IMG/VR virus record: IMGVR_UViG_3300047160_001842
Location: 1-64,000 of that record
Origin: a virus
Taxonomy: Duplodnaviria > Caudoviricetes
Reading direction: 5' to 3' (one strand)
Length of the DNA stretch: 64,000 nt
The notes under the pieces are model-generated. The model worked only from the letters and a program-made list of their open reading frames with translations. It was not told the origin of the DNA and did not search any database. Both the position numbers and the translations under genes were made by a program. This document shows positions 5,101 to 58,182 of the stretch, in pieces (the first letter of the stretch is position 1; each line of letters starts with the position of its first letter).

Positions 5101-5397
5101 TCACCCCACACAAGATGGTGAGACGCGCCTGAGTGGGCAATGACTGCGGCGCGGTTTGACTGCGGCAGGTTCTGGCTCAGGCTCCGGGTCATCGATACGG
5201 ACGCGCACGGCCATCGTTGGCCAGAACACAATGGTTCTGGGGTGGAACACCGGATAGCTCAGCCACCTGGTGTGCTCTATTGTTGGGTCTGCCACGGGCG
5301 CGATGATACGCCCGGTCTTTGTGGACACCGATTGCGCGGCAATCCAAGTCTCGTAAACGTCCCGCCGCAGTGGCGACTCGCCTTGGTTGCCGTACAT
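5101..5397 (-). CDS. Hypothetical protein
   Basis: TGATG coupling with upstream gene. Confidence 0.5.
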   Translation of the reverse strand: MYGNQGESPLRRDVYETWIAAQSVSTKTGRIIAPVADPTIEHTRWLSYPVFHPRTIVFWPTMAVRVRIDDPEPEPEPAAVKPRRSHCPLRRVSPSCVG

Positions 5398-5783
5398 CAG
5401 TAGGAGCCTGCGTTGTCGATGGCATCCTTCGCCAAGTCCAGTTGAGCAATGACCGTCTCGTGGTCCTCCGACTCAGCCGCTGAGTGTGCTTCGTGAAAGG
5501 CATTATCCGCATCGTCTAGCTCTGAGACGACTGATTGCGCGTTATCGCCCTTCTCACCGCCCTGCAAGCCGGACGGCATGTTGTAGTAATACTCTTGCTC
5601 CTCGTCCTTGATCGATTCGCACTGTTCGCGAAGACCTTGGATATCGTCCGCCAGCGCTGCGAATTCGAGCTTGTTGGCTCGGTCTGGGACTTCCTTCTGA
5701 TCAAGGTCCAGTTGGACCTTCTGTACGAGGGAGTCCACATCCGCGTGGAGTGCGCTAAGTTGGGCGCGACGAATCTTGTTCAT
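5397..5783 (-). CDS. Acidic helical phage protein
   Basis: AAAGGA RBS; IKDEEQEYYYNMPSGLQGGEKGD motif familiar from phage hypotheticals. Confidence 0.75.
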   Translation of the reverse strand: MNKIRRAQLSALHADVDSLVQKVQLDLDQKEVPDRANKLEFAALADDIQGLREQCESIKDEEQEYYYNMPSGLQGGEKGDNAQSVVSELDDADNAFHEAHSAAESEDHETVIAQLDLAKDAIDNAGSY

Positions 5784-5918
5784 AGCTATCCTTTGTTGAT
5801 GGAATAGCTATTCTATCGCGCGCCGAAGATGGCCATGAACAACTCTGGTGGCAGATCGACTTCGCACACATCCACTTCCGAGTACACGCCTTGGGGTTCG
5901 AATAGGTATGCCATAACA

Positions 5919-6257
5919 TTAGTCCGAGGAGTCAATGCCTTCAAGCCAGTTCGCCCGCTTCTGGCCGAAGCGATAGTAACGGACACCGCCTGCCCAGTAG
6001 TCGTTGACGATTGAGTAGCCAAGTCCGGATGGCATCCAATGGAGGTGTGCGGACACCGCCATCTCAAGCCCCGTTCGCGGCGTCGGGATCATCTGCCTGA
6101 ACTCGGTCAGAACCGGAGTCCAAGTGAAGTAGTCCGACTTGGCGAAGGTTTGGGCATCAATCTCCTCCCAGTTCGTTGGGAAGTTGTTGAAGCCGCCGTG
6201 GGACACTCTATGGTCCGCTTGCTCGGCCTGTGAGAGGTCGTAAAGTTCTTTGATCAT
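5919..6257 (-). CDS. Hypothetical protein
   Basis: AGAAAG RBS, ATGA coupling. Confidence 0.7.
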   Translation of the reverse strand: MIKELYDLSQAEQADHRVSHGGFNNFPTNWEEIDAQTFAKSDYFTWTPVLTEFRQMIPTPRTGLEMAVSAHLHWMPSGLGYSIVNDYWAGGVRYYRFGQKRANWLEGIDSSD

Positions 6258-6520
6258 TTATGTTCTTTCTGTCGCAATGCAAGCATTACTTTTCTGCCGT
6301 CAACATCCAGCTGGATGTACCCTCCGTTCTTCATCATCGCGCCACGGACGCCTCGTGAGCCGTCCATTCCGAGGGAACGGAGGGCCGCGCCAACGGACTT
6401 GTACTCGGTCACTTTCCGCCCAACCTTCATCGCAGCAGCGTACCGTTTAGAACGCGCGGCGGCGATCTTCGGGTTGGCCCAGGTGGCGGCAGCAGCCTTA
6501 GATATTGCGGTGTTAGTCAT
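6254..6520 (-). CDS. Small basic putative DNA-binding protein, paralog of 8143-8418
   Basis: TWANPKIAAARSKRY...YKSVGAALRSLG. Confidence 0.75.
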   Translation of the reverse strand: MTNTAISKAAAATWANPKIAAARSKRYAAAMKVGRKVTEYKSVGAALRSLGMDGSRGVRGAMMKNGGYIQLDVDGRKVMLALRQKEHK

Positions 6521-8142: not shown

Positions 8143-8418
8143 TTAGATGACTTCAAGCGCGGTGATGACCGCCTTCTGGCCGTCCACCTCCAACTCGACA
8201 TATTGGCAGTCGCGGGCGGCGGCGCGAACCGAACGCCAGCCGGACTCGACGCCGAGGGCGCGGAGGGCGGCGGGAACGCTCTTGAACATCTCGACGCGCT
8301 CGCCGATTTGGACGCTCGCGGCGTAGCGCTTGCTGCGGGCGGCGGCGACTTCGGGGACGGCCCACGAAGCGACGGCGGAAGCGGAGATGGCGGCATTGAA
8401 TTGATTAGCGGTGTTCAT
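8143..8418 (-). CDS. Small putative DNA-binding protein, paralog of 6254-6520
   Basis: SWAVPEVAAARSKRY...FKSVPAALRALG. Confidence 0.75.
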   Translation of the reverse strand: MNTANQFNAAISASAVASWAVPEVAAARSKRYAASVQIGERVEMFKSVPAALRALGVESGWRSVRAAARDCQYVELEVDGQKAVITALEVI

Positions 8419-8450
8419 GATTCTGGTCTTTCTAAAGAGTTGGTGAACGA

Positions 8451-8478
8451 ATTATAACGCAGTTTCTGGCTTTCTCAA
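8451..8478 (-). promoter_or_regulatory. sigma70-like early promoter
   Basis: TTGAGA-16-TATAAT. Confidence 0.7.
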
Positions 8479-8547
8479 AATCCCTTCATTTCTGAGGGGT
8501 CTTTGCTAGCAGTTCCCGTCGTTTCCTTCGTTTCCTGCTATGCCTCA

Positions 8548-8575
8548 AGTATAACGCAGTTTTTGAAAATCGCAA
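8548..8575 (-). promoter_or_regulatory. sigma70-like early promoter, tandem copy of 8451
   Basis: TTGCGA-16-TATACT; 8453-8468 and 8550-8565 differ by 1 base. Confidence 0.65.
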
Positions 8576-8582
8576 AGTCCTT

Positions 8583-9356
8583 TCATGACGTAGGGTTATT
8601 GCTGAGCCGGACTGCCGAGTTCACCGGGCGATTGCCTTCCACACCCGGCACAATCTCGATTGCCGCGCCGCGTACACGTCCGGCCTGCAGGGCGTCCCAG
8701 CCCTCGTTGCCTTTGACTTCGAAGGGCTTGGCCGTCCCGTACTTCACATTGCCGAAGTGCTTGCTGACGGCGTCCTTCTTGATGATCATCAGCGCTGTCC
8801 CTGATCCTACGTGGGTGATGGTGTCGCGCTCCTCCGTCATCGCCTTTAGCCGCTCGGCCACGATGTTCGTTGCACCCTCCTCGAATGTCCGGAGGAGCTG
8901 GGCGACTAGTTTCCCGTACTTCGCCTTGCACCAATCCTGTCCGAGCTTCTTAATGGTGTTCGTTAGGCGGGAGTACATCGCCTGGGCCAGCTCCACGTCC
9001 GATTGGTAGCCCATGAAGACGATCCGCCGACCAACACGCGGTTTGCCGCTGACTCCGGCGTTGTAGAACCCGCCTTCGAACCGCGCCTGGCAGTCGTTGA
9101 ACTGGGCGATCCGGACGGCCAGGCCCTCGACAAACCGGCTGACGTCAGGCATGTACGACTTGGTGGCTGGGCCGGTCATGAACGCTTCGGTGACTTCCTT
9201 TGAAACGTCGAATTCGCTGACCTGGTATTTGTCCATCAGCGACCGTGCGCGCCCTGCGGCAATCGCGGCCTCGTTCGGGCTGGAGGCATCTGCCGCCATC
9301 GCGAGGAGCTTGGCGATGCGGTCCTTGATCTTTTCGATATCGATATGTTCAGTCAT
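8583..9356 (-). CDS. DUF2786-domain protein
   Basis: KIKDRIAKLLAMAADASSPNEAAIAAGRARSLMDKYQV N-terminal signature. Confidence 0.85.
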   Translation of the reverse strand: MTEHIDIEKIKDRIAKLLAMAADASSPNEAAIAAGRARSLMDKYQVSEFDVSKEVTEAFMTGPATKSYMPDVSRFVEGLAVRIAQFNDCQARFEGGFYNAGVSGKPRVGRRIVFMGYQSDVELAQAMYSRLTNTIKKLGQDWCKAKYGKLVAQLLRTFEEGATNIVAERLKAMTEERDTITHVGSGTALMIIKKDAVSKHFGNVKYGTAKPFEVKGNEGWDALQAGRVRGAAIEIVPGVEGNRPVNSAVRLSNNPTS

Positions 9357-9382
9357 TCTTTTCTTTCTGGTGGTGATCGATG

Positions 9383-9835
9383 TTAGCGCTTTTTGATGGC
9401 GTCAAGTGAACGTTCGTCAGCGAGGACGGCGCGCAGCCCGTGGTGGAGGTTCTGCGGCAAATCGTCCAGCGACACCCACGCCGCCTCGTCCGTTTCCCAG
9501 TTCAGCACAGGGCAGAATTCCCGGTCAACGATGGCGAGGAAGTTGTGATAGGTGAACGATCCGGATCGGAACACCAGCAGCTGGCGGAGGTCCACCGCGC
9601 CGAGATATCCGCACTCTTCCGTCATCTCGCGCAGCGCGGCTGTCTCCGGGTCGTCGCCGGGATTCAGCGCGCCTCCCCAAGTGCCGTAGGTGCCTGGGTG
9701 TTCGCACTCGTCGCTCCGGAGAGGGAGGAGGATGCGCCCGGTGTCCTTGGCCACGATCACGCAGCCAGCGCCAGCCTTCCCGTAGAAGCCGGTGCGCTGG
9801 AGCGCTTCGAAGTGTTCGGTTTCGTCTTCGATCAT
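9383..9835 (-). CDS. Nudix hydrolase
   Basis: Nudix box GGALNPGDDPETAALREMTEECG. Confidence 0.9.
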   Translation of the reverse strand: MIEDETEHFEALQRTGFYGKAGAGCVIVAKDTGRILLPLRSDECEHPGTYGTWGGALNPGDDPETAALREMTEECGYLGAVDLRQLLVFRSGSFTYHNFLAIVDREFCPVLNWETDEAAWVSLDDLPQNLHHGLRAVLADERSLDAIKKR

Positions 9836-10122
9836 TTCTTGCCCTTGGATAGTCGTTGGAGGATAGGATCGCGCTTCTCAGCCGCCTTCAGAAGGGCGTT
9901 TGCCTTCTTGAGGTGCTTGATGATCTTGTCCTGATTCTCGCGTGTACGCGGGCAATCGACGGCGAGTTGCTTGGCGGTCGTTACGTGGATGGCTGCGCGA
10001 TAGTGTCCGTTCGTACGGAGTTCGGCGGCGAGGTCTGCGAGGGCCGGCACAACGTTCACCCAGTGGACGTATTTGAAGCGCGGGATTGCCTCGATGAGGT
10101 CTTTGATCTTGATCATGATCAC
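9832..10122 (-). CDS. Hypothetical protein
   Basis: ATGA/GTGA coupling at both ends. Confidence 0.6.
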   Translation of the reverse strand: MIMIKIKDLIEAIPRFKYVHWVNVVPALADLAAELRTNGHYRAAIHVTTAKQLAVDCPRTRENQDKIIKHLKKANALLKAAEKRDPILQRLSKGKK

Positions 10123-10334
10123 TCGCTGATGCCACGGAGGGCGCGGCTTCTTGCGTAGGCGTCTGCCGTGAGGCCTTGGTGGTACTTCGCGCTCTCCCGC
10201 CCGAACCTTTCCTGGAGGCCCTGGCAGAAAGCGAAGTCCAGGGCCGCGCCGTTCTGGGAGGTGATCGCCCGTTGGCGCTGCATCTCGGCTTGGTTTGCCG
10301 TGCGCCGCTGGCGCTCTTGTTCGCGCTTGTTCAT
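10119..10334 (-). CDS. Hypothetical protein
   Basis: Start MNKREQ 1 bp from upstream stop. Confidence 0.6.
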   Translation of the reverse strand: MNKREQERQRRTANQAEMQRQRAITSQNGAALDFAFCQGLQERFGRESAKYHQGLTADAYARSRALRGISE

Positions 10335-10335
10335 C

Positions 10336-10557
10336 TCAGGCCACCACGTTGAATTTGAAATGGATGCCTTCTTGGATGGCGCGTTCGCCGATGAAGACCG
10401 GGAAGAATCGACCGTCCGTGTGCGTTGCGATGAAGTACGTTTGCTGGCGCGCGAAGTCGCGATCACCATAGAACTTTTCGACTGCCTTCTGTGCGTTCTC
10501 GCGGGTTGCGTAGGTCTTCGAAGGGGTCAGCTGGATCAGGGCTTGGGCGATTTTCAT
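10336..10557 (-). CDS. Hypothetical early protein
   Basis: AAGGA RBS within a 24-bp leader identical to that of 12099. Confidence 0.7.
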   Translation of the reverse strand: MKIAQALIQLTPSKTYATRENAQKAVEKFYGDRDFARQQTYFIATHTDGRFFPVFIGERAIQEGIHFKFNVVA

Positions 10558-10583
10558 TTCAGTTCCTTGGTTGGTATGGCTCA

Positions 10584-10610
10584 ATTCTATACCATTTCTG
10601 AGAATCGCAA
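10584..10610 (-). promoter_or_regulatory. Possible sigma70-like promoter
   Basis: TTGCGA-15-TAGAAT (short spacer); -10 aligns with the 12126 promoter relative to the shared leader. Confidence 0.45.
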
Positions 10611-10624
10611 AGCCCTTTCTCACG

Positions 10625-10837
10625 TCATGGGTATTTTCTGCTGAACGTCGCCGTTCGCCGGTAGCACTTCGCCACCCGGTCGTACTCCATGTTGTCTGGC
10701 GCGGCCTCGATGTACGCGCGGATATCGAGGCTCGCTTGCGGAGTGGATAGGTCAAAGAAGCGTTCGATGGCGCTCCGGTTGACCGTTCCATACTCCTCTA
10801 GCATAACGTCGATGAACTTCAGCCGCCACTCTTTCAT
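10625..10837 (-). CDS. Stand-alone winged-helix domain resembling the N-terminus of CapW/BrxR-type WYL repressors
   Basis: RLKFIDVMLEEYGTVNRSAIERFFDLSTPQASLDIRAYIEAAPDNMEYDRVAKCY; only 70 aa, no WYL domain. Confidence 0.8.
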   Translation of the reverse strand: MKEWRLKFIDVMLEEYGTVNRSAIERFFDLSTPQASLDIRAYIEAAPDNMEYDRVAKCYRRTATFSRKYP

Positions 10838-10914
10838 TTCGGGCCTTTCGGCAGAGGAGGCTTGGGAACCGGCATAGGGTCGCGCGGTTCCTGCGGCAGT
10901 GGGATGATGGTCAT
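10834..10914 (-). CDS. 26-aa proline-rich micropeptide
   Basis: MTIIPLPQEPRDPMPVPKPPLPKGPK; ATGA overlaps at both ends. Confidence 0.5.
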   Translation of the reverse strand: MTIIPLPQEPRDPMPVPKPPLPKGPK

Positions 10915-11165
10915 TCTGTCGTCACCTCGATTCCGTGAACGTCTCGCATGTACTCTTTGAGTCCATCCAGATCGGGCACGCCCGTCAGCAGCGTCTCATA
11001 CACAACGCCGCCAGCGCAATTGGAGAGGGTGCCGGATTCGTCCGGCGTCGGCAGCAGCGCCATGTTGTAGAGCGCGACGTACACCACCAATGCCGTCTCC
11101 TCGCTGGAGCCGACCGCTTCGATAGCCGGAAGGCTGCCGTTGGATTCCGATTTGATAACGAACAT
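10911..11165 (-). CDS. Hypothetical protein
   Basis: GGAG RBS; coupled stop. Confidence 0.6.
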   Translation of the reverse strand: MFVIKSESNGSLPAIEAVGSSEETALVVYVALYNMALLPTPDESGTLSNCAGGVVYETLLTGVPDLDGLKEYMRDVHGIEVTTE

Positions 11166-11169
11166 GATT

Positions 11170-11268
11170 TCAATCTCCACAGATGAGGGTTAGGATGATC
11201 TTGGCGACGCCATAGAAGACGCCCGCCACAACAGCGGCGATGACTAGAAGGATGAGGACGGCGCCCAT
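11170..11268 (-). CDS. 32-aa membrane micropeptide
   Basis: MGAVLILLVIAAVVAGVFYGVAKIILTLICGD; fills the gap in the operon. Confidence 0.5.
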   Translation of the reverse strand: MGAVLILLVIAAVVAGVFYGVAKIILTLICGD

Positions 11269-11269
11269 G

Positions 11270-11485
11270 TTAGCCCTTCTTGATGTTAACAAAGGTCGCC
11301 AGCGCGCTGATGTACTTGTCGGCATTCTCGATGAGGTGGTTGGTGAGTTCGTGCGGCTGCATATCTCGCCACCAAACGCCCTCCACCAGGACCTCTAACG
11401 GTCTGCGGCGGTCAACCTCCCACTGCGCCTTGCGCTCCTGAAGAGAGGCCAGCTGGGCCTCGTCCTCGAATGTCCAGCCTTCCAT
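11270..11485 (-). CDS. Hypothetical protein
   Basis: GGAGG RBS. Confidence 0.6.
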   Translation of the reverse strand: MEGWTFEDEAQLASLQERKAQWEVDRRRPLEVLVEGVWWRDMQPHELTNHLIENADKYISALATFVNIKKG

Positions 11486-11486
11486 C

Positions 11487-11786
11487 TCACTCCTCCATCC
11501 GAGCGTTGAGGTTGTTGATAAGGGCCTCGCGGATGTCCTCGTCATCGAACACATCGACGGGCATCAGCACGCCAGTATCGAGGTCGTAGAACGTCTGCGG
11601 CTCGACGGATTCCAGCGACACGAGGAAAGCGCCCTTGACACCTCCAAGGTCGCGCTCCAGAATCTCACCCTTGCAATCGTGCTCGATGACGGCGCTGAAC
11701 TCCTTCACGAAGTCCTCCGGCGCGTTCAGATTCAAGTACATCGGCTCGTCGCCGGTTTCGTACATCAAAATGACGTATTCGGTCAC
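11487..11786 (-). CDS. Acidic hypothetical protein
   Basis: AAGGAG RBS, GTG start. Confidence 0.6.
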   Translation of the reverse strand: MTEYVILMYETGDEPMYLNLNAPEDFVKEFSAVIEHDCKGEILERDLGGVKGAFLVSLESVEPQTFYDLDTGVLMPVDVFDDEDIREALINNLNARMEE

Positions 11787-11796
11787 AATGTTCTCC

Positions 11797-12099
11797 TTAG
11801 AGCGGGCTATATGCCGCGACGTTGGTTTGGATGAGGTTGCTGACGGAGGTGTACGCGCCGACCGGAGCGCCCCACTGCTGTTCCGGATATCCGCCGGTCT
11901 TGAGTCTGCCGTACTCCCAGGAAGGAACGGCCTTGACTTTTTCCAAGAAGCGCTCGGCGCGGCGTCGATCCTTGAAAACTGCCGCGTGGGCGATGGTTTC
12001 CCAGAAGCTATCCGAGCAATCCCGGTAGATTCCTTGGATTTGGAAACCGGCAATCCCGGCGATGGTAACCTGCTTGATTTCGAGGTTGCGGATGGTCAT
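11797..12099 (-). CDS. Hypothetical early protein
   Basis: Leader identical to that of 10557; downstream of consensus promoter. Confidence 0.7.
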   Translation of the reverse strand: MTIRNLEIKQVTIAGIAGFQIQGIYRDCSDSFWETIAHAAVFKDRRRAERFLEKVKAVPSWEYGRLKTGGYPEQQWGAPVGAYTSVSNLIQTNVAAYSPL

Positions 12100-12125
12100 T
12101 TCAGTTCCTTGGTTGGTATGACGCA

Positions 12126-12154
12126 ATTATAGGTCAGAAATGAACGTTCGTCAA
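12126..12154 (-). promoter_or_regulatory. sigma70 early promoter
   Basis: TTGACG-17-TATAAT. Confidence 0.85.
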
Positions 12155-12160
12155 TACCCT

Positions 12161-12487
12161 TCATTCTGGTCTGATATTCAGAAACTCGCCGTGCTTCTCG
12201 CGCGCCTCGTCCACGACTAGCAGGTGGGCCTCCAGCGCCTTATCGTACCCCTCCACGATGATCGAGCCGTTGTCGCCGATCCTGACCGGCATCAGTTCGG
12301 GCGGGAAAGCGTAGGACGGATTGACGCCCGCCACGAGCATGTGCAGCGAGCGCTTGCGCCAGAGGTCGCCGCCCTTCGTCAGCGTCACCTCGCCGTCCTG
12401 CCATACCTCGTACACCATGGAGTCCGCTTGGCGCTCCGGCTGGTGGAGGGATAGGAACCGGGTTAGGTTCGTTTCTTGTGTGTTCAT
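12161..12487 (-). CDS. Hypothetical protein
   Basis: Start MNTQET; fills operon. Confidence 0.65.
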   Translation of the reverse strand: MNTQETNLTRFLSLHQPERQADSMVYEVWQDGEVTLTKGGDLWRKRSLHMLVAGVNPSYAFPPELMPVRIGDNGSIIVEGYDKALEAHLLVVDEAREKHGEFLNIRPE

Positions 12488-12573
12488 CTTGGATAGAATG
12501 TGTTCGGTTGGGACGAGTCGGCGCGGCTGGAGCCTAGCCCCAACCCGCCCGTCGATGGTTCCTAGCGGGCCTC

Positions 12574-13167
12574 TCACCCGAAGAAGTTGCCACGGCATAT
12601 CGGGCCGATCCCAAGCTCAATCGAGAGCGCGTTGGTGAGCGTCCGGCTGCAGACAGAGCAGGAGCCGTACTGACGCCCGTAGGCCACGGAGGTTTCCTCC
12701 GGATGTCCGCAAGCGTCGATGATGTCTGCTTCTGCCTCGACATCGCATTCGTAAGAGCGGAAGAAGTGACCGGCCTTGACCTTCCCGAGGTAGGTGCCGG
12801 CCTCGTCCTTGACGTAGAGCGCTCCGGCGTTCGATCCGAAGGCTGGCGCCTGCGAGATGACGTAGGTGGCTCCGGCCTTGCTGAAAAGGCGCATCTTGGG
12901 GCGGTTGATCCCGTTTCCGTTGGCCCTCTCGAAAGCCTTCTCAATGAGAGATACGTCCACGGCGGATTCCGGCTTAGGCGCGGCTGGGGCCTTCGGGGCG
13001 GCGCACTTCTTCGCTGCCGCCATCTGACGCTCCGTGAGGAGTTTTCCGTGGTTGACTTGATCGCGGAGCGAAAGGGCGAATTCGAAGTTGGTGTTGTTCC
13101 ACCACTTCGCGATATCCGGATGAACATCCTCAAAAGCGAGGAGGAAGGTGGTCTTGCTATCGGTCAT
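12574..13167 (-). CDS. DUF6011-like zinc-ribbon protein
   Basis: C-terminal CSVCSRTLTNALSIELGIGPIC. Confidence 0.8.
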   Translation of the reverse strand: MTDSKTTFLLAFEDVHPDIAKWWNNTNFEFALSLRDQVNHGKLLTERQMAAAKKCAAPKAPAAPKPESAVDVSLIEKAFERANGNGINRPKMRLFSKAGATYVISQAPAFGSNAGALYVKDEAGTYLGKVKAGHFFRSYECDVEAEADIIDACGHPEETSVAYGRQYGSCSVCSRTLTNALSIELGIGPICRGNFFG

Positions 13168-13194: not shown

Positions 13195-13223
13195 ATTCTA
13201 GCGCCATTTCTGACGCTAGGCAA
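13195..13223 (-). promoter_or_regulatory. sigma70 early promoter
   Basis: TTGCCT-17-TAGAAT. Confidence 0.75.
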
Positions 13224-48198: not shown

Positions 48199-49527
48199 AT
48201 GCCCCTCATCATCCCACCACTGATCCAAACGCCGTTCGCGGACTCCGGCGACAAGACCACTGTTCCACAGACAGACCCAAGCGGGTTTGTGAGCTTCTTG
48301 ACCGGGTATACGCCTGACTATGAGCTCAACCTTGCTTCCGGCGACCCACAAGCAAAGGCCGTGGAGCGCGGGATTCAGAACTATCTGTTCAACACCGGTA
48401 CGCTGGCCACGAAGGCCTGGCAGACAGCCGCGCGTCCGCCATGGTACAACACCATGCCCGGAGGCTATGCTAAGTGGGCAGAAGTGGTGTACGACACCGG
48501 CGACGGCAACCCCAAGCCTTTCCGCTCGCTGGTGTCCGGGAACGTCGCCGCGCCGGGAAGCTCGCCCAACTGGGAGTACATCCAAGGCTCCGGCGAGATG
48601 ATCAAGAACATCCCGATGCCCAGCGGCGGTGCGGGTGGCCCTGGTACGTACCTCATCACAGTCGCAACGGACTTCAACACGATCACCGGCAACGGCTCGT
48701 GGCAGTTCCAAAGCGATGCAATCGTCACAGGCTCTCCGAACTCTCCTCAGAATGGCGGCAACCAGGCCCAAGCTGGTATGCTGGAGGTGTCCTCGTGGGC
48801 GAACGGCGCCAACGCCTACGTCACCCAGTTCTATCGCGACAAGGCCGGACTCGGGTGGATGCGCGGCGCGGTCAACGGCATCTGGACTGGTTGGAAGATT
48901 TGGGCCGCAGCCAACCAGTTTGTGGTAGGCGAGATTCGCATGTGGAACGGGACCGCGACGCAAGCCGCGATCACAGCCGCGTGGGGACCGGGTTGGCGGC
49001 TTTGCGATGGTACGAACGGGACGGCCAACCTCAAGGACCGATTCATCATCGGCGCTGGCGGGACGATTGGCGCGACCGGAACGACTGGCGGCGCGTCGGC
49101 TGTTGCTCTGGCGATAGCCAATATGCCGGCCCACAACCACGTTATCAACATCGGCGACCCCGGACACGCACACAGCGTTTACGATCCGGGGCACAACCAC
49201 GGCGTCAGCGACCCTGGGCACTCACACGGGGTCGCTGACCCTGGGCACAACCACTCGTTCAACGGCGGTGCGATTGCAGTTGCCGGCTCGGCTGGCGGCT
49301 TCTTCATGACGAGTGGCGGTGCAACCGGGACGTCAACAAACGGCACCGGGATCAGCATCTACGGAAACGGGACCGGGATCGGCATTGCTGCGAGCGGAAC
49401 CGGCATCGGCATTTACGCCAACGGCACTGGCATCACCGCCAGTTCCAACAACACTGGTAGCGGGACGGCCTTCAGCATCATGCCGCCATACTACGCTTTG
49501 TGCTTTGTTCAATACACAGGAGCTTAA
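48199..49527 (+). CDS. Main tail fibre with collar domain and His-repeat needle
   Basis: PFADSGDK..VP; VGEIRMW..GWRLCDGTNGT.NLKDRFIIGAG; four DPGHxH repeats; PPYYALCFV. Confidence 0.9.
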   Translation: MPLIIPPLIQTPFADSGDKTTVPQTDPSGFVSFLTGYTPDYELNLASGDPQAKAVERGIQNYLFNTGTLATKAWQTAARPPWYNTMPGGYAKWAEVVYDTGDGNPKPFRSLVSGNVAAPGSSPNWEYIQGSGEMIKNIPMPSGGAGGPGTYLITVATDFNTITGNGSWQFQSDAIVTGSPNSPQNGGNQAQAGMLEVSSWANGANAYVTQFYRDKAGLGWMRGAVNGIWTGWKIWAAANQFVVGEIRMWNGTATQAAITAAWGPGWRLCDGTNGTANLKDRFIIGAGGTIGATGTTGGASAVALAIANMPAHNHVINIGDPGHAHSVYDPGHNHGVSDPGHSHGVADPGHNHSFNGGAIAVAGSAGGFFMTSGGATGTSTNGTGISIYGNGTGIGIAASGTGIGIYANGTGITASSNNTGSGTAFSIMPPYYALCFVQYTGA

Positions 49528-55388: not shown

Positions 55389-58182
55389 CGCCGTCCAGTC
55401 GCTTGATTCCGATGACGTTAAACATCTGGTATTCGCTCAGACGCTTCACCTTGATCAACCACCAGCTACCCTTCGGCGCACCTTCGGCGATGGCCTTGCC
55501 GTGGGACAGGTACATGTCGCGACCAATCCGGAACCGCAGTGCGGAGTCTGACGAGTCATCAACCATAAACATGTCCAGGAAGATCGTTTGACCCTTGTAG
55601 ACCTTCCCGCCGCGCTTTTTCACGCGGATCGGCTCGTTGGCGTCGGAGATGGTCTTGCTCATCAGCTTCGCGATCACCAAGCTGGTAACGCCATCCACGC
55701 AATCGGCCATGTTCATAATCGGCCTGCCGGACGTAACGCCAGCAAGCGCAGGGTCGCGGTAGTAGTGACCCCACTTGGTGTGCGCTTCGGCGAGGTCTGC
55801 ATACTTGATCTCAGCGTTGGTGAGACGGTCCTTGTCCTTCTGAGTGAGTGTGCCCGCCTCTCGCTTCTGGACATAGGACAGCGCCTTGACCGGCCCATAT
55901 CCCTTTGCATTCTGGATGCCTCCGATGAGTCGCCCGTCCGCCACCTTCCAATTCATGTCGCTGAAGTCCGGATCAATAGGCGTGTACTCGATCCCTTCGC
56001 GGCTGATCTCACGGAGAATCGCGATTGTCTGCTCATCGTCCTTCGCGGCACGGAGGGAAGCTGCAGCGTACTCCAGAGGGAAGTAACGTTTGAGATAGCA
56101 AGTCCAATAGGTGACGATTGCATAACTGACGCTGTGCGACTTGTTGAAGCCCCAGGCTCCGAAGGTCGCCATTTCTGACCATATTTTCTTGGCTTCGGCT
56201 TCGGGGATGCCATTCGCCACAGCACCGGCCACGAAGTCCTGGCCGAGCTTGTTGAAGTATTCCTCGCCCTTGCGCCCAGACATCGCCTTACGCACGGTGG
56301 AGGTCTTCTGCCAGTCGAATGAGCCAAGCTCTTTCACCATCGACATGATCTGCTCTTGGTACAGAATCACGCCATAGGTGTTGCTGAGATACTTCTCAAG
56401 TTGCGGCACATCGTAGGTGATCGGCTCTTTTCCCGCCGCGCGTGCAATGTAGCGCTGGGCCATACCGGAGGAGAGCGGGCCGGGTCGCGCCAGCGCTGTG
56501 AGATGGTCGATCTTGCTGAAGTCGTCCACGTTCACGGAGCGCGTAACGGATCGCACCGCATCGCCTTCGAATTGGAAGATGCCGGACACCTTATCCTCGT
56601 TGAGGATATCGAGCACGGACTTATCATCCAGCTTCAACCCGTACAACTCCTCTGCGGTGATAACACCGGCGTCCTCGATCACTCCGAGTGTCCGAAGGCC
56701 CAGGGCGTCAATCTTGAGCAAATTGAGGTATTCAGAGTCGGGCTTATCGATCTGCGCCACGCCGTCTTCCGTCACAGTGCAGTAGTCCGTCACCGGATCG
56801 TTACACACAAGGATGCCAGCCGCGTGGACGCCGGAGTGCGATGGATGAATCTCGATATCACCCATGCAGGCGGCAGCTTTAGGCCACTTGAGTTGGAAGT
56901 CCTTGCCAGGCTCCGTCTTCGTCATGGTGTCCTCCAGACCCTTCCCATAACGCTCGTCAGCGGACGAGTATTCGATGAGCGAGTTTCGGATGTTCGAAGT
57001 CTCCCAGACTGCAATGCCGAACTTCTTGCCGACTTGCGCGAGCACGGACGCGGCCTTGAGGGTGTTGATGTTCCCCAGCTTGGACACGTTATCTTTGCCG
57101 TACTTGTTCTGCAGGTACTCGAACACCAGGTGGCGCTTCGTGTCGGTGAAGTCGATGTCGATATCCGGAAGGTCTGCGCGGCTGATATCGATGAAGCGAT
57201 GGAAGAGGAGCTGGTGCGGGAGCGGATCGACTTCAGTGATGCCGATGAGGTAACAGATCAAAGAGCCAGCGGAGGAGCCGCGTGCAGGTCCGACCAGCAT
57301 ATGCTCCTTGGCGTAGCGCACGAGGTCCGACACCACCAGAAAGTAGCTGTCGAACTTCTTGAGTTTGATCTGGTCTAGCTCAAGCTTGAACCGCTCCTCG
57401 TACACCTGAGTCCACTCGGCGATATGCCCACGCGCTAGGCGGGAGGCTTGGCCCTCGCGGGCGAGCGCTTCTAGGTCGCCGTCCAAGTAGATAAGCGGAG
57501 CCTTGGCTAGGATGTGTCCCTGGAGGCTTTCGGCGACGGCGCGGGTATTCGCCCCAGCCTCTTCGAACTCGTCTCTGGACATTACCTCTTGGAGGACGCT
57601 CCACATCTCCTCCTCGCTCGCAATCCACCTCATGCCCACAGAGTCGCGAACCTCCCAAGCGTGGGCGAACGGCTCGTGCTTCTTGTCCGGCATGTCGTTG
57701 TATGACGTCAAAACCATCGGCTTGCCTGTCTGTCGCGCTAGTCGGACGGCCTTGGCTGCGTGGAGGTAAGAGGACGGGTTAACGTCGATGTAATCGTATG
57801 CGTCTTCAGGAAGGTCCAGGGCGCCACCGATGAAGCGGATGAGACCTGGGGCTGCGGCCAGTTCCTCCGGTGTCGCTCCGCCATTCCTAACCACGCGGCT
57901 GGTGAAGTTGTAGAGCTTCTTCGTATCGGTGGCGAGCACCCATGCGACAGGCTTGAATCCGTTGTCCGGGTTGATGATCGGGACTTCCATCCCGAACATC
58001 GGATGCATCTCGGCTTTCTTGAGTGCCTGTTCGAAGCGGACATGACCCCAAGTGCCGTGATCGACTAGACCAGCGCTGGTGACGCCTAGCTCCTTCAGTT
58101 TGGTCACTATCTCCGGCATTCGCCCGTAGGCGTTGCGGTAGGAGTAGCCTGAGCGGACGCGGAGTTGCGGCAGAGTGGTCAT
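55372..58182 (-). CDS. dnaE: DNA polymerase III alpha-like (family C) polymerase
   Basis: GPARGSSAGSLICY.IGITEVDP, PDIDIDF, GVHAAG, LKIDALGL, GFNKSHSVSY. Confidence 0.96.
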   Translation of the reverse strand: MTTLPQLRVRSGYSYRNAYGRMPEIVTKLKELGVTSAGLVDHGTWGHVRFEQALKKAEMHPMFGMEVPIINPDNGFKPVAWVLATDTKKLYNFTSRVVRNGGATPEELAAAPGLIRFIGGALDLPEDAYDYIDVNPSSYLHAAKAVRLARQTGKPMVLTSYNDMPDKKHEPFAHAWEVRDSVGMRWIASEEEMWSVLQEVMSRDEFEEAGANTRAVAESLQGHILAKAPLIYLDGDLEALAREGQASRLARGHIAEWTQVYEERFKLELDQIKLKKFDSYFLVVSDLVRYAKEHMLVGPARGSSAGSLICYLIGITEVDPLPHQLLFHRFIDISRADLPDIDIDFTDTKRHLVFEYLQNKYGKDNVSKLGNINTLKAASVLAQVGKKFGIAVWETSNIRNSLIEYSSADERYGKGLEDTMTKTEPGKDFQLKWPKAAACMGDIEIHPSHSGVHAAGILVCNDPVTDYCTVTEDGVAQIDKPDSEYLNLLKIDALGLRTLGVIEDAGVITAEELYGLKLDDKSVLDILNEDKVSGIFQFEGDAVRSVTRSVNVDDFSKIDHLTALARPGPLSSGMAQRYIARAAGKEPITYDVPQLEKYLSNTYGVILYQEQIMSMVKELGSFDWQKTSTVRKAMSGRKGEEYFNKLGQDFVAGAVANGIPEAEAKKIWSEMATFGAWGFNKSHSVSYAIVTYWTCYLKRYFPLEYAAASLRAAKDDEQTIAILREISREGIEYTPIDPDFSDMNWKVADGRLIGGIQNAKGYGPVKALSYVQKREAGTLTQKDKDRLTNAEIKYADLAEAHTKWGHYYRDPALAGVTSGRPIMNMADCVDGVTSLVIAKLMSKTISDANEPIRVKKRGGKVYKGQTIFLDMFMVDDSSDSALRFRIGRDMYLSHGKAIAEGAPKGSWWLIKVKRLSEYQMFNVIGIKRLDGDVETA

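Follow-up and report, generated by a model that had tools for sequence, protein, structure and literature searches.

A 70-residue phage protein is a stand-alone winged helix of the CapW/BrxR type and belongs to a conserved, phage-borne clade

Our analysis of a 64,000-nucleotide stretch of a tailed phage genome (the window) showed that it carries a gene for a 70-residue protein whose molecular nature is clear: it is the DNA-binding head of a repressor of the CapW/BrxR type. The protein is a conserved, phage-specific variant of a known DNA-binding domain, and its family is almost purely phage-borne. Its short relatives form one old clade rather than the products of repeated captures from hosts.

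The gene and its genome

The virus record measures 72,434 bp, has direct terminal repeats and is rated complete; the window is its first 64 kb. The window has a GC content of 58.6%, and the winged helix-turn-helix (wHTH) gene one of 56.8%. The head-protease-like gene of this phage has distant kin in Wifcevirus/Pbunavirus-type phages (56% identity over 69% of the query).

Reading of the ORF indicated a real gene with an ATG start and a TGA stop (Table 1), and inspection of the sequence revealed no in-frame start that would extend it. A preliminary description had claimed that the ORF ends directly past the winged helix. This was confirmed, as the PDB alignment reaches the final residue. Residue 70 lies right after the wing, and no WYL domain and no C-terminal WCX or BrxR_CTD domain was found in the ORF. 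A search for WYL (PF13280) across the 72-kb phage gave no match, while control genomes did match, and the idea of a split gene was ruled out since there is no WYL anywhere in the phage. Over its recognition-helix codons, the wHTH gene itself contains an imperfect palindrome of 28 bp (10704-10731), with perfect arms of 8 bp around a 12-nt spacer.

Table 1. Coordinates of the wHTH gene, its unit, promoter-like sites, the recurring 9-mer and H-NS-like genes near relatives (window positions unless a locus is named)
Feature	Position	Strand	Remarks
70-aa stand-alone CapW/BrxR-type winged helix gene (WHD_BrxR, PF26109)	10625..10837	-	Stop codon included
Shine-Dalgarno-like GAAAGG	10844..10849	-	6 nt 5′ of the ATG; sequence reading
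Helix 1 codons (residues 2-16)	10790..10834	-	With clade-specific M12 and Y16 of the predicted dimer interface
Recognition helix codons (residues 32-45)	10703..10744	-	S31-T-P-Q-A-S36 motif starts one codon earlier; contact residues: PMC9122588, PMC9122589
Beta-hairpin wing codons (residues 50-61)	10655..10690	-	K57, Y59, clade-specific R61
Upstream gene of wHTH unit	11797-12102	-	No Pfam or PHROG family
Upstream gene of wHTH unit	11270-11554	-	No Pfam or PHROG family
Upstream gene of wHTH unit	11170-11325	-	No Pfam or PHROG family
Upstream gene of wHTH unit	10911-11180	-	No Pfam or PHROG family
Sigma70-like promoter TTGACG-17-TATAAT, 11/12	12126..12154	-	Heads the wHTH unit; inverted CATTTCTGA in spacer
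Early promoter-like site	10584..10620	-	Just past the wHTH stop; TCAGAAATG in spacer
Early promoter-like site TTGCCT-17-TAGAAT	13195..13223	-	TCAGAAATG in spacer
Early promoter-like site TTGAGA-16-TATAAT (8478-8451, 11/12)	8451..8495	-	TCAGAAATG just 5′ of the -35 hexamer
Sigma70-like site	8575-8548	-
CATTTCTGA copy	8487-8495
CATTTCTGA copy	10593-10601
CATTTCTGA copy	12134-12142	-
CATTTCTGA copy	13205-13213
CATTTCTGA copy	56170-56178
H-NS-like gene near short wHTH	L003 5684-5989
H-NS-like gene near short wHTH	L006 5702-6004
H-NS-like gene near short wHTH	L012 5914-6216
H-NS-like gene near short wHTH	L013 5289-5810
H-NS-like gene near short wHTH	L018 5489-5842

Similarity to CapW and BrxR

The best PDB match of the protein in a phmmer search was CapW of P. 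aeruginosa PA17 (7tb5, E 5.7e-14), with query residues 3-70 on chain residues 25-92. It was followed by CapW of S. maltophilia (7tb6, 2.5e-11) and R. leguminosarum (9c5g, 3.1e-11) and by BrxR (7qfz, 6.5e-3). The PDB sequence matches were to CapW and BrxR alone; DriD and PafBC were absent from the phmmer matches (E up to 10) and from the Foldseek matches listed. The AF2 model, built on a 35-row alignment, has a pLDDT of 96.9 and comprises three helices (residues 2-16, 21-28 and 32-45) and a hairpin (50-61). Foldseek placed it on CapW with an rmsd of 0.5 Å and a TM of 0.97. Its ranks 1-13 were all CapW/BrxR chains (TM 0.87-0.97 by query, rmsd 0.5-1.0 Å), and after a clear gap the next fold followed at TM 0.67. 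Precomputed annotation gives the protein PF26109 (WHD_BrxR). Our own Pfam scan returned no family, with a profile set that was without PF26109, and hence provides no evidence against membership in WHD_BrxR.

In S. maltophilia CapW, mutation of R32 and of S42/Q45/S47 abolishes DNA binding (PMC9122588). The alignment showed that these residues are R21, S31, Q34 and S36 in the phage protein, all kept, and column statistics found them in 97, 97, 88 and 69% of the short clade, respectively. In the BrxR-DNA structure the equivalent recognition stretch and a Lys and a Tyr of the wing touch DNA (PMC9122589); the phage protein has K57 and Y59 in its wing. The preliminary description had proposed a sensor-less, stand-alone winged helix of the CapW/BrxR type, which it would have given up for want of a profile match. 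Both phmmer and Foldseek matched CapW/BrxR, and together with the kept DNA-contact residues they support the proposal. The residue pattern on which it had been based was also found to be real, its positions being conserved columns: R5, F8, I9, L13, G17, N20, R21, F28, S31, P33, Q34, A35, S36, D38, Y42, A46, P47, N49, Y52, D53, K57 and Y59.

CapW is a wHTH-WYL-WCX repressor of CBASS and other immune operons. In the three structures compared (7TB5 from P. aeruginosa PA17, 7TB6 from S. maltophilia and 9C5G from R. leguminosarum), its winged helix is the same as that of the phage protein (41-48% identity, TM 0.94-0.97, rmsd 0.5-0.7 Å), and the two have in common an extra N-terminal helix and the DNA-contact R, S, Q and S. 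Unlike CapW, the phage protein has no WYL sensor, no WCX and no domain-swapped dimer, and its gene sits among early genes, not beside a defence operon with a palindromic operator over the -10. The surface of helices 1 and 2 also differs (positions 7, 12, 15, 16 and 23), and there is a basic tail (R61, R67).

BrxR, a WYL protein that regulates BREX and defence islands (7QFZ, 7T8K/7T8L), has the same fold (TM 0.87-0.95) but is more distant in sequence than CapW (29% identity), and the phage protein is without its WYL and C-terminal domains as well. The S-x-x-Q at the start of the BrxR recognition helix, the wing Lys and the wing Tyr, all DNA contacts in 7T8K, have equivalents in the phage protein, while the base-reading R38 corresponds to variable position 32, a T in the phage protein.

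The DNA-damage activators DriD and PafBC share with the cellular relatives the broad wHTH-WYL class and the sensing of single-stranded DNA (ssDNA); they are activators with WYL domains, hence not the source clade. CapS, a small immune-operon repressor, was considered as a relative and rejected, being a STAS-wHTH protein of the MarR type.

Short relatives form a clade of their own

HMMER, run exhaustively against 1.84 billion cluster representatives, returned 502 matches at E up to 1e-3. Among the best 150 of these 502, taken together with word-index matches, 52 proteins end within 6 residues of the end of the query. Thirty-six of those 52 cluster representatives stop at the identical residue, with a conserved F-x-R-x-aromatic-P tail. 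The query itself ends in F-S-R-K-Y-P, which fits F-x-R-x-[W/F/Y]-P.

In a weakly resolved tree of the domain (94 rows, 73 columns), 43 short proteins including the query formed one group (SH-aLRT 91), separate from 41 of the 42 full-length wHTH-WYL-WCX proteins. The label short or full-length changed 3 times on this tree, against a mean of 31 in shuffles. Within the best 150 representatives, the short forms were at most 57% identical to any full-length protein.

Where the domain is fused to another, the wHTH is always the C-terminal end and nothing follows the module, the reverse of the cellular layout. One such protein, P0006 (L009 4863-5300), has a Cro/CI-type XRE HTH followed by the wHTH; it is encoded on a 46-kb phage contig with a primase gene two genes downstream. 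Three others (P0018, P0126 and P0014) have Cys-rich, zinc-ribbon-like N-terminal extensions ahead of the wHTH.

The family of the query is that of the stand-alone phage WHD_BrxR proteins (70-80 aa, 38-68% identity), such as CPT_Sonora_088 of phage Sonora, which is annotated as 'hypothetical protein'. They have the end point and the diagnostic residues in common with the query and likewise lie among small phage genes of one orientation. The query, one of the shortest members, is without the usual 3-9 residues ahead of helix 1.

Diagnostic residues and a predicted homodimer

Seven positions of the domain distinguish the short clade from the full-length proteins (Table 2). With K7, M12, E15, Y16, A23, R61 and R67, the query fits the short clade. 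The overall net charge of the domain was 2.7 in short and 2.0 in full-length proteins, a difference that is not significant (p=0.14), and on this ground the idea that short forms are more basic overall was dropped.

Table 2. Diagnostic positions of the domain
Position	Short clade	Full-length proteins
7	Basic 91%	Basic 17%
12	Hydrophobic 93%	Hydrophobic 5% (R/K 90%)
15	Variable	W 100%
16	Hydrophobic 93% (Y 72%)	Hydrophobic 10% (E/D/Q)
23	Hydrophobic 81%	Hydrophobic 5% (D 78%)
61	Basic 79%	Basic 19%
67	Basic 79%	Basic 0%

Prediction with two copies gave a homodimer score of 0.50, against 0.02 for the best control. Of proteins solved as pairs, 20 of 30 had reached this mark, and of those solved as single chains 1 of 23; these counts apply only roughly, since the prediction used our own alignment. 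All contacts agreed across three runs, and the pLDDT of the partner was at least 89. The predicted interface is symmetric and consists of residues 7-8, 11-12, 14-16, 20, 22-23 and 26-27, with Y16 opposite Y16. The clade-specific hydrophobic positions 12, 16 and 23 all lie within it, and the recognition helix and the wing are left free. Solved CapW/BrxR dimers that the model has memorised may account for part of this pass.

Cellular CapW owes its pairing chiefly to domain-swapped contacts of WYL and WCX (PMC9122588). As modelled, the hydrophobic interface of helices 1 and 2 would replace this lost pairing. The caveat raised at the outset, that the domains for dimerisation are missing, is largely answered by the clade-specific hydrophobic residues on helices 1 and 2 together with the predicted homodimer. 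Residues 12, 16 and 23 offer a direct handle on how a domain whose pairing normally relies on other domains became autonomous.

Distribution of the family

The preliminary description had called for a survey of phages for stand-alone copies. Our pattern scan of IMG/VR found 62 loci, on contigs of 5 kb to 315 kb: 58 short with a stop at the same place, 2 full-length and 2 intermediate. This ratio is somewhat biased, the patterns having been derived from short proteins (a closer alignment, A2), although one of the two patterns also fits full-length proteins. The scan of viral contigs with the single query protein found nothing. Stenotrophomonas phage Sonora was the sole match in a tblastn search of the protein against phages, and megablast of window positions 9000-13000 against phages gave no match. 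The closest ESM Atlas clusters consist of WHD_BrxR alone; they are 69-77 aa long, have 56-94 members each and are mostly from Uroviricota.

We then have the domain in 19 of 301 genomes of the order Xanthomonadales (the order around Luteimonas), in 21 places. Twenty of these places are longer frames, nearly all of about 300 residues, and one is short. This lone short-type match scored 117 bits (the others at most 87) and lies in a prophage-like stretch beside an RdgC-like gene. A scan of genome contigs with one narrow pattern gave 4 loci. In three of the four bacterial genomes that have a short copy, no full-length homologue was seen.

Relatives lie on IMG/VR contigs, and in the six gene contexts viewed they sit in arrays of small co-directional phage genes. 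The flanking ORFs are not conserved: 307 neighbours fell into 231 clusters with no fixed partner, and just two named neighbours recur, DUF7694 at 7 loci and an H-NS-like gene at 5. The wHTH gene looks accessory. Of about 65 phage loci, 5 have an H-NS-like gene (PF00816; Table 1) at most three genes from the short wHTH, and in two of these it is immediately upstream; the phage of the window has no H-NS-like gene. The literature that we searched holds no description of the stand-alone phage form and no tested function for its members, and databases name it automatically, from the Pfam domain.

The early block and its promoters

The wHTH gene lies in a leftward block, from about 14 kb to 1 kb, of small genes that mostly have no family. 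Families were found for a NUDIX hydrolase and for DUF2786/DUF7168, DUF6011 and DUF7338 proteins. The NUDIX hydrolase gene (PF00293, E 3.7e-14) is at 9383-9835 (-), three genes downstream of the wHTH gene. The label "early" given to the gene at first fits this layout, a leftward block of small genes that appears to be driven by sigma70-like promoters. Five genes make up the unit headed by the 12154 promoter. The wHTH gene is the last of them, and the next promoter-like site follows right after its stop. The 5′ leader of this 10620 promoter is 88% identical to that of the 12154 promoter.

Two repeated promoter/leader pairs were observed, 10549-10589 with 12091-12131 (88%) and 8450-8503 with 8547-8600 (72%). 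Owing to the first pair, two early genes have their leader, RBS and first codons in common. A GAAGGG-like stretch 5′ of the -35 is another shared feature of the early promoters. Two paralogous early proteins of 88-91 aa, encoded at 6254-6520 (-) and 8143-8418 (-), share AAARSKRYAA, and one of them is VirD1-like at a sub-threshold E of 0.002. They may represent another type of DNA-binding protein within this block.

The window has 5 exact copies of the 9-mer CATTTCTGA, where by our estimate about 0.5 would be expected on both strands. The excess disappears once one mismatch is allowed (10 copies, 13.5 expected). Of the five exact copies, four belong to early promoter-like sites: three sit in the spacer near the -10, one of these inverted, and the other is just 5′ of a -35. 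The fifth, inside a gene for 936 aa, is probably there by chance. The 9-mer could be a candidate operator of an early-encoded regulator. It was not found in the loci of close relatives.

No recurring palindrome was found in the window, and none in the promoters adjoining the wHTH gene. Palindromes were present in the 200 bp upstream of 23% of short genes, 25% of control windows and 37% of full-length genes (n=19), a test too weak to separate them. Those upstream of several full-length genes (L083, L084 and L100; Xanthomonadales-order genomes) share TATAC..GTATA-like cores, which may be a common operator type of the full-length branch. TATAC..GTATA and TATAG..CTATA cores are absent from the window.

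Possible targets and roles

Occupation of host CapW/BrxR-type defence operators by the 70-aa protein, in a way that could not be induced, is a real possibility that falls short of being probable. On this reading the gene product would be a small, autonomous, signal-blind DNA-binding protein. It would have kept the helix-turn-helix and wing with which CapW and BrxR read half-sites of about 10 bp. It would have lost the WYL and WCX domains, the sensors of ssDNA and the holders of the cellular dimer, and would pair instead through the hydrophobic patch on helices 1 and 2. Produced early from a strong sigma70-type promoter, the dimer would occupy operators of the CapW/BrxR type, which in host defence-island promoters lie across the -10. 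The ssDNA signal of infection would fail to release a protein that has no sensor, and the induction or priming of BREX, CBASS and similar operons would be blocked.

In favour of the host-operator reading are the ancestry in defence regulators, the precise removal of the sensor, the kept contact residues, a distribution that is accessory and patchy, and an H-NS-like neighbour in some loci. We infer DNA binding in vivo and repression and, most of all, that a host defence operator is the target. Some observations pull the other way. Mimicry for the operators of varied hosts might lead one to expect repeated recent captures, whereas the short forms are an old monophyletic clade. The missing full-length homologue in 3 of 4 genomes with a short copy is neutral to mildly unfavourable. 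The same holds for the Sonora copy, which has its better score with CapW of Pseudomonas and not with that of S. maltophilia, its host species. The domain is also present in just 19 of the 301 genomes searched in the order. One study reports that derepression is unnecessary for stopping a first infection (10.1101/2025.11.13.688357), in which case the phage would benefit indirectly.

The anti-defence reading is plausible. Its widest form, a large and old phage-specific family of signal-blind repressor heads with their own dimer interface that clamp host defence promoters against the ssDNA alarm, sometimes beside H-NS-like silencers, is one that we doubt more than we believe. If true, it would mean counter-defence at the level of transcription, while most known counter-defences hit defence proteins or their signals. 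CapW/BrxR-type regulators govern many defence islands, and the reason for their inducibility is an open question; if phages carry uninducible heads, induction matters enough to be attacked.

The protein may instead regulate early transcription of the phage itself, its dimer binding a shared element of the early promoters and damping them once early proteins have accumulated, in a Cro/Ner- or Aca-like feedback. We give this nearly the same weight as the host-operator reading, short of probable. Small phage HTH proteins mostly act on phage promoters, and this general habit speaks for self-regulation, as do the clustering of exact CATTTCTGA copies in early promoter-like sites, the last place in a unit behind an 11/12 promoter and the one relative fused to a CI/Cro-type XRE HTH. 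In addition, the wHTH is the sole recognised DNA-binding domain among the 21 early-block proteins scanned. However, each promoter has one non-palindromic 9-mer, while BrxR uses two half-sites 5 bp apart, and CATTTCTGA is absent at L101/L102, though protein P0002 there shares the first 13 residues of the recognition stretch. Upstream palindromes were not enriched over controls in what was a weak test, the patchy accessory distribution and ever-changing neighbours are unlike those of a core regulator, and the two paralogous 88-91 aa proteins could be the binder instead. If its target is the phage's own early promoters, the protein would be an ordinary early repressor of unusual ancestry.

Aca and Cro/Ner-type repressors are likewise small, dimeric, sensor-less phage DNA-binding proteins of strongly promoted early operons. 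They differ from the phage protein in HTH family, and no anti-defence neighbour or palindromic operator was identified in the phage. A strictly Aca-like role, in which the four upstream genes serve counter-defence and the 70-aa protein merely represses their strong promoter, is unlikely. The gene's position at the end of a short operon led by a near-consensus promoter is the acr-aca layout, and the -35 of the 12126-12154 promoter is flanked by CAGAATG and CATTTCTG, an inverted pair that is imperfect and widely spaced. Against it, the upstream genes have neither families nor known anti-defence relatives, and in relatives the gene is mid-operon, with overlapping start and stop codons and different neighbours. 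To our knowledge, no known Aca family is of the WHD_BrxR type.

We consider it very unlikely that the protein acts as a dominant-negative poison, forming mixed dimers with the winged helix of host CapW/BrxR or displacing it. The same fold and the identity to CapW heads would allow for this. But the interface differs from that of the full-length family (L against R at position 12, Y against E/D at 16, A/V against D at 23), the W at 15 that is invariant in full-length forms is lost, and the WYL/WCX contacts that mainly hold the cellular dimer are missing. Moreover, loss of repression would raise defence expression, to the phage's harm. The early suggestion that the protein might disturb the host regulator has become less likely with these changed interface residues.

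Decay of the gene from a full-length WYL regulator, or a chance origin of the ORF, has nothing but the small size in its favour and can practically be dismissed: the end point is kept in 36 cluster representatives and 58 viral loci, the short forms have their own clade, the model is of high pLDDT (96.9), a WYL remnant is present neither downstream nor elsewhere in the phage, and the relatives, which on such a view should include a recently broken full-length WYL gene, are a conserved phage family.

Other features of the window

A near-perfect palindrome of 20 bp (one mismatch) with a TAGAAT -10-like hexamer lies at 5798-5817, in the gap just upstream of the gene at 5397-5783 (-). Its layout is operator-like, and about 2 such palindromes are expected by chance in 64 kb. 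Periodic repeats of 27 bp (His, Asp-Pro and Gly codons; D3 and D4) were observed at 1916-2023 and 49151-49260, in two genes 47 kb apart.
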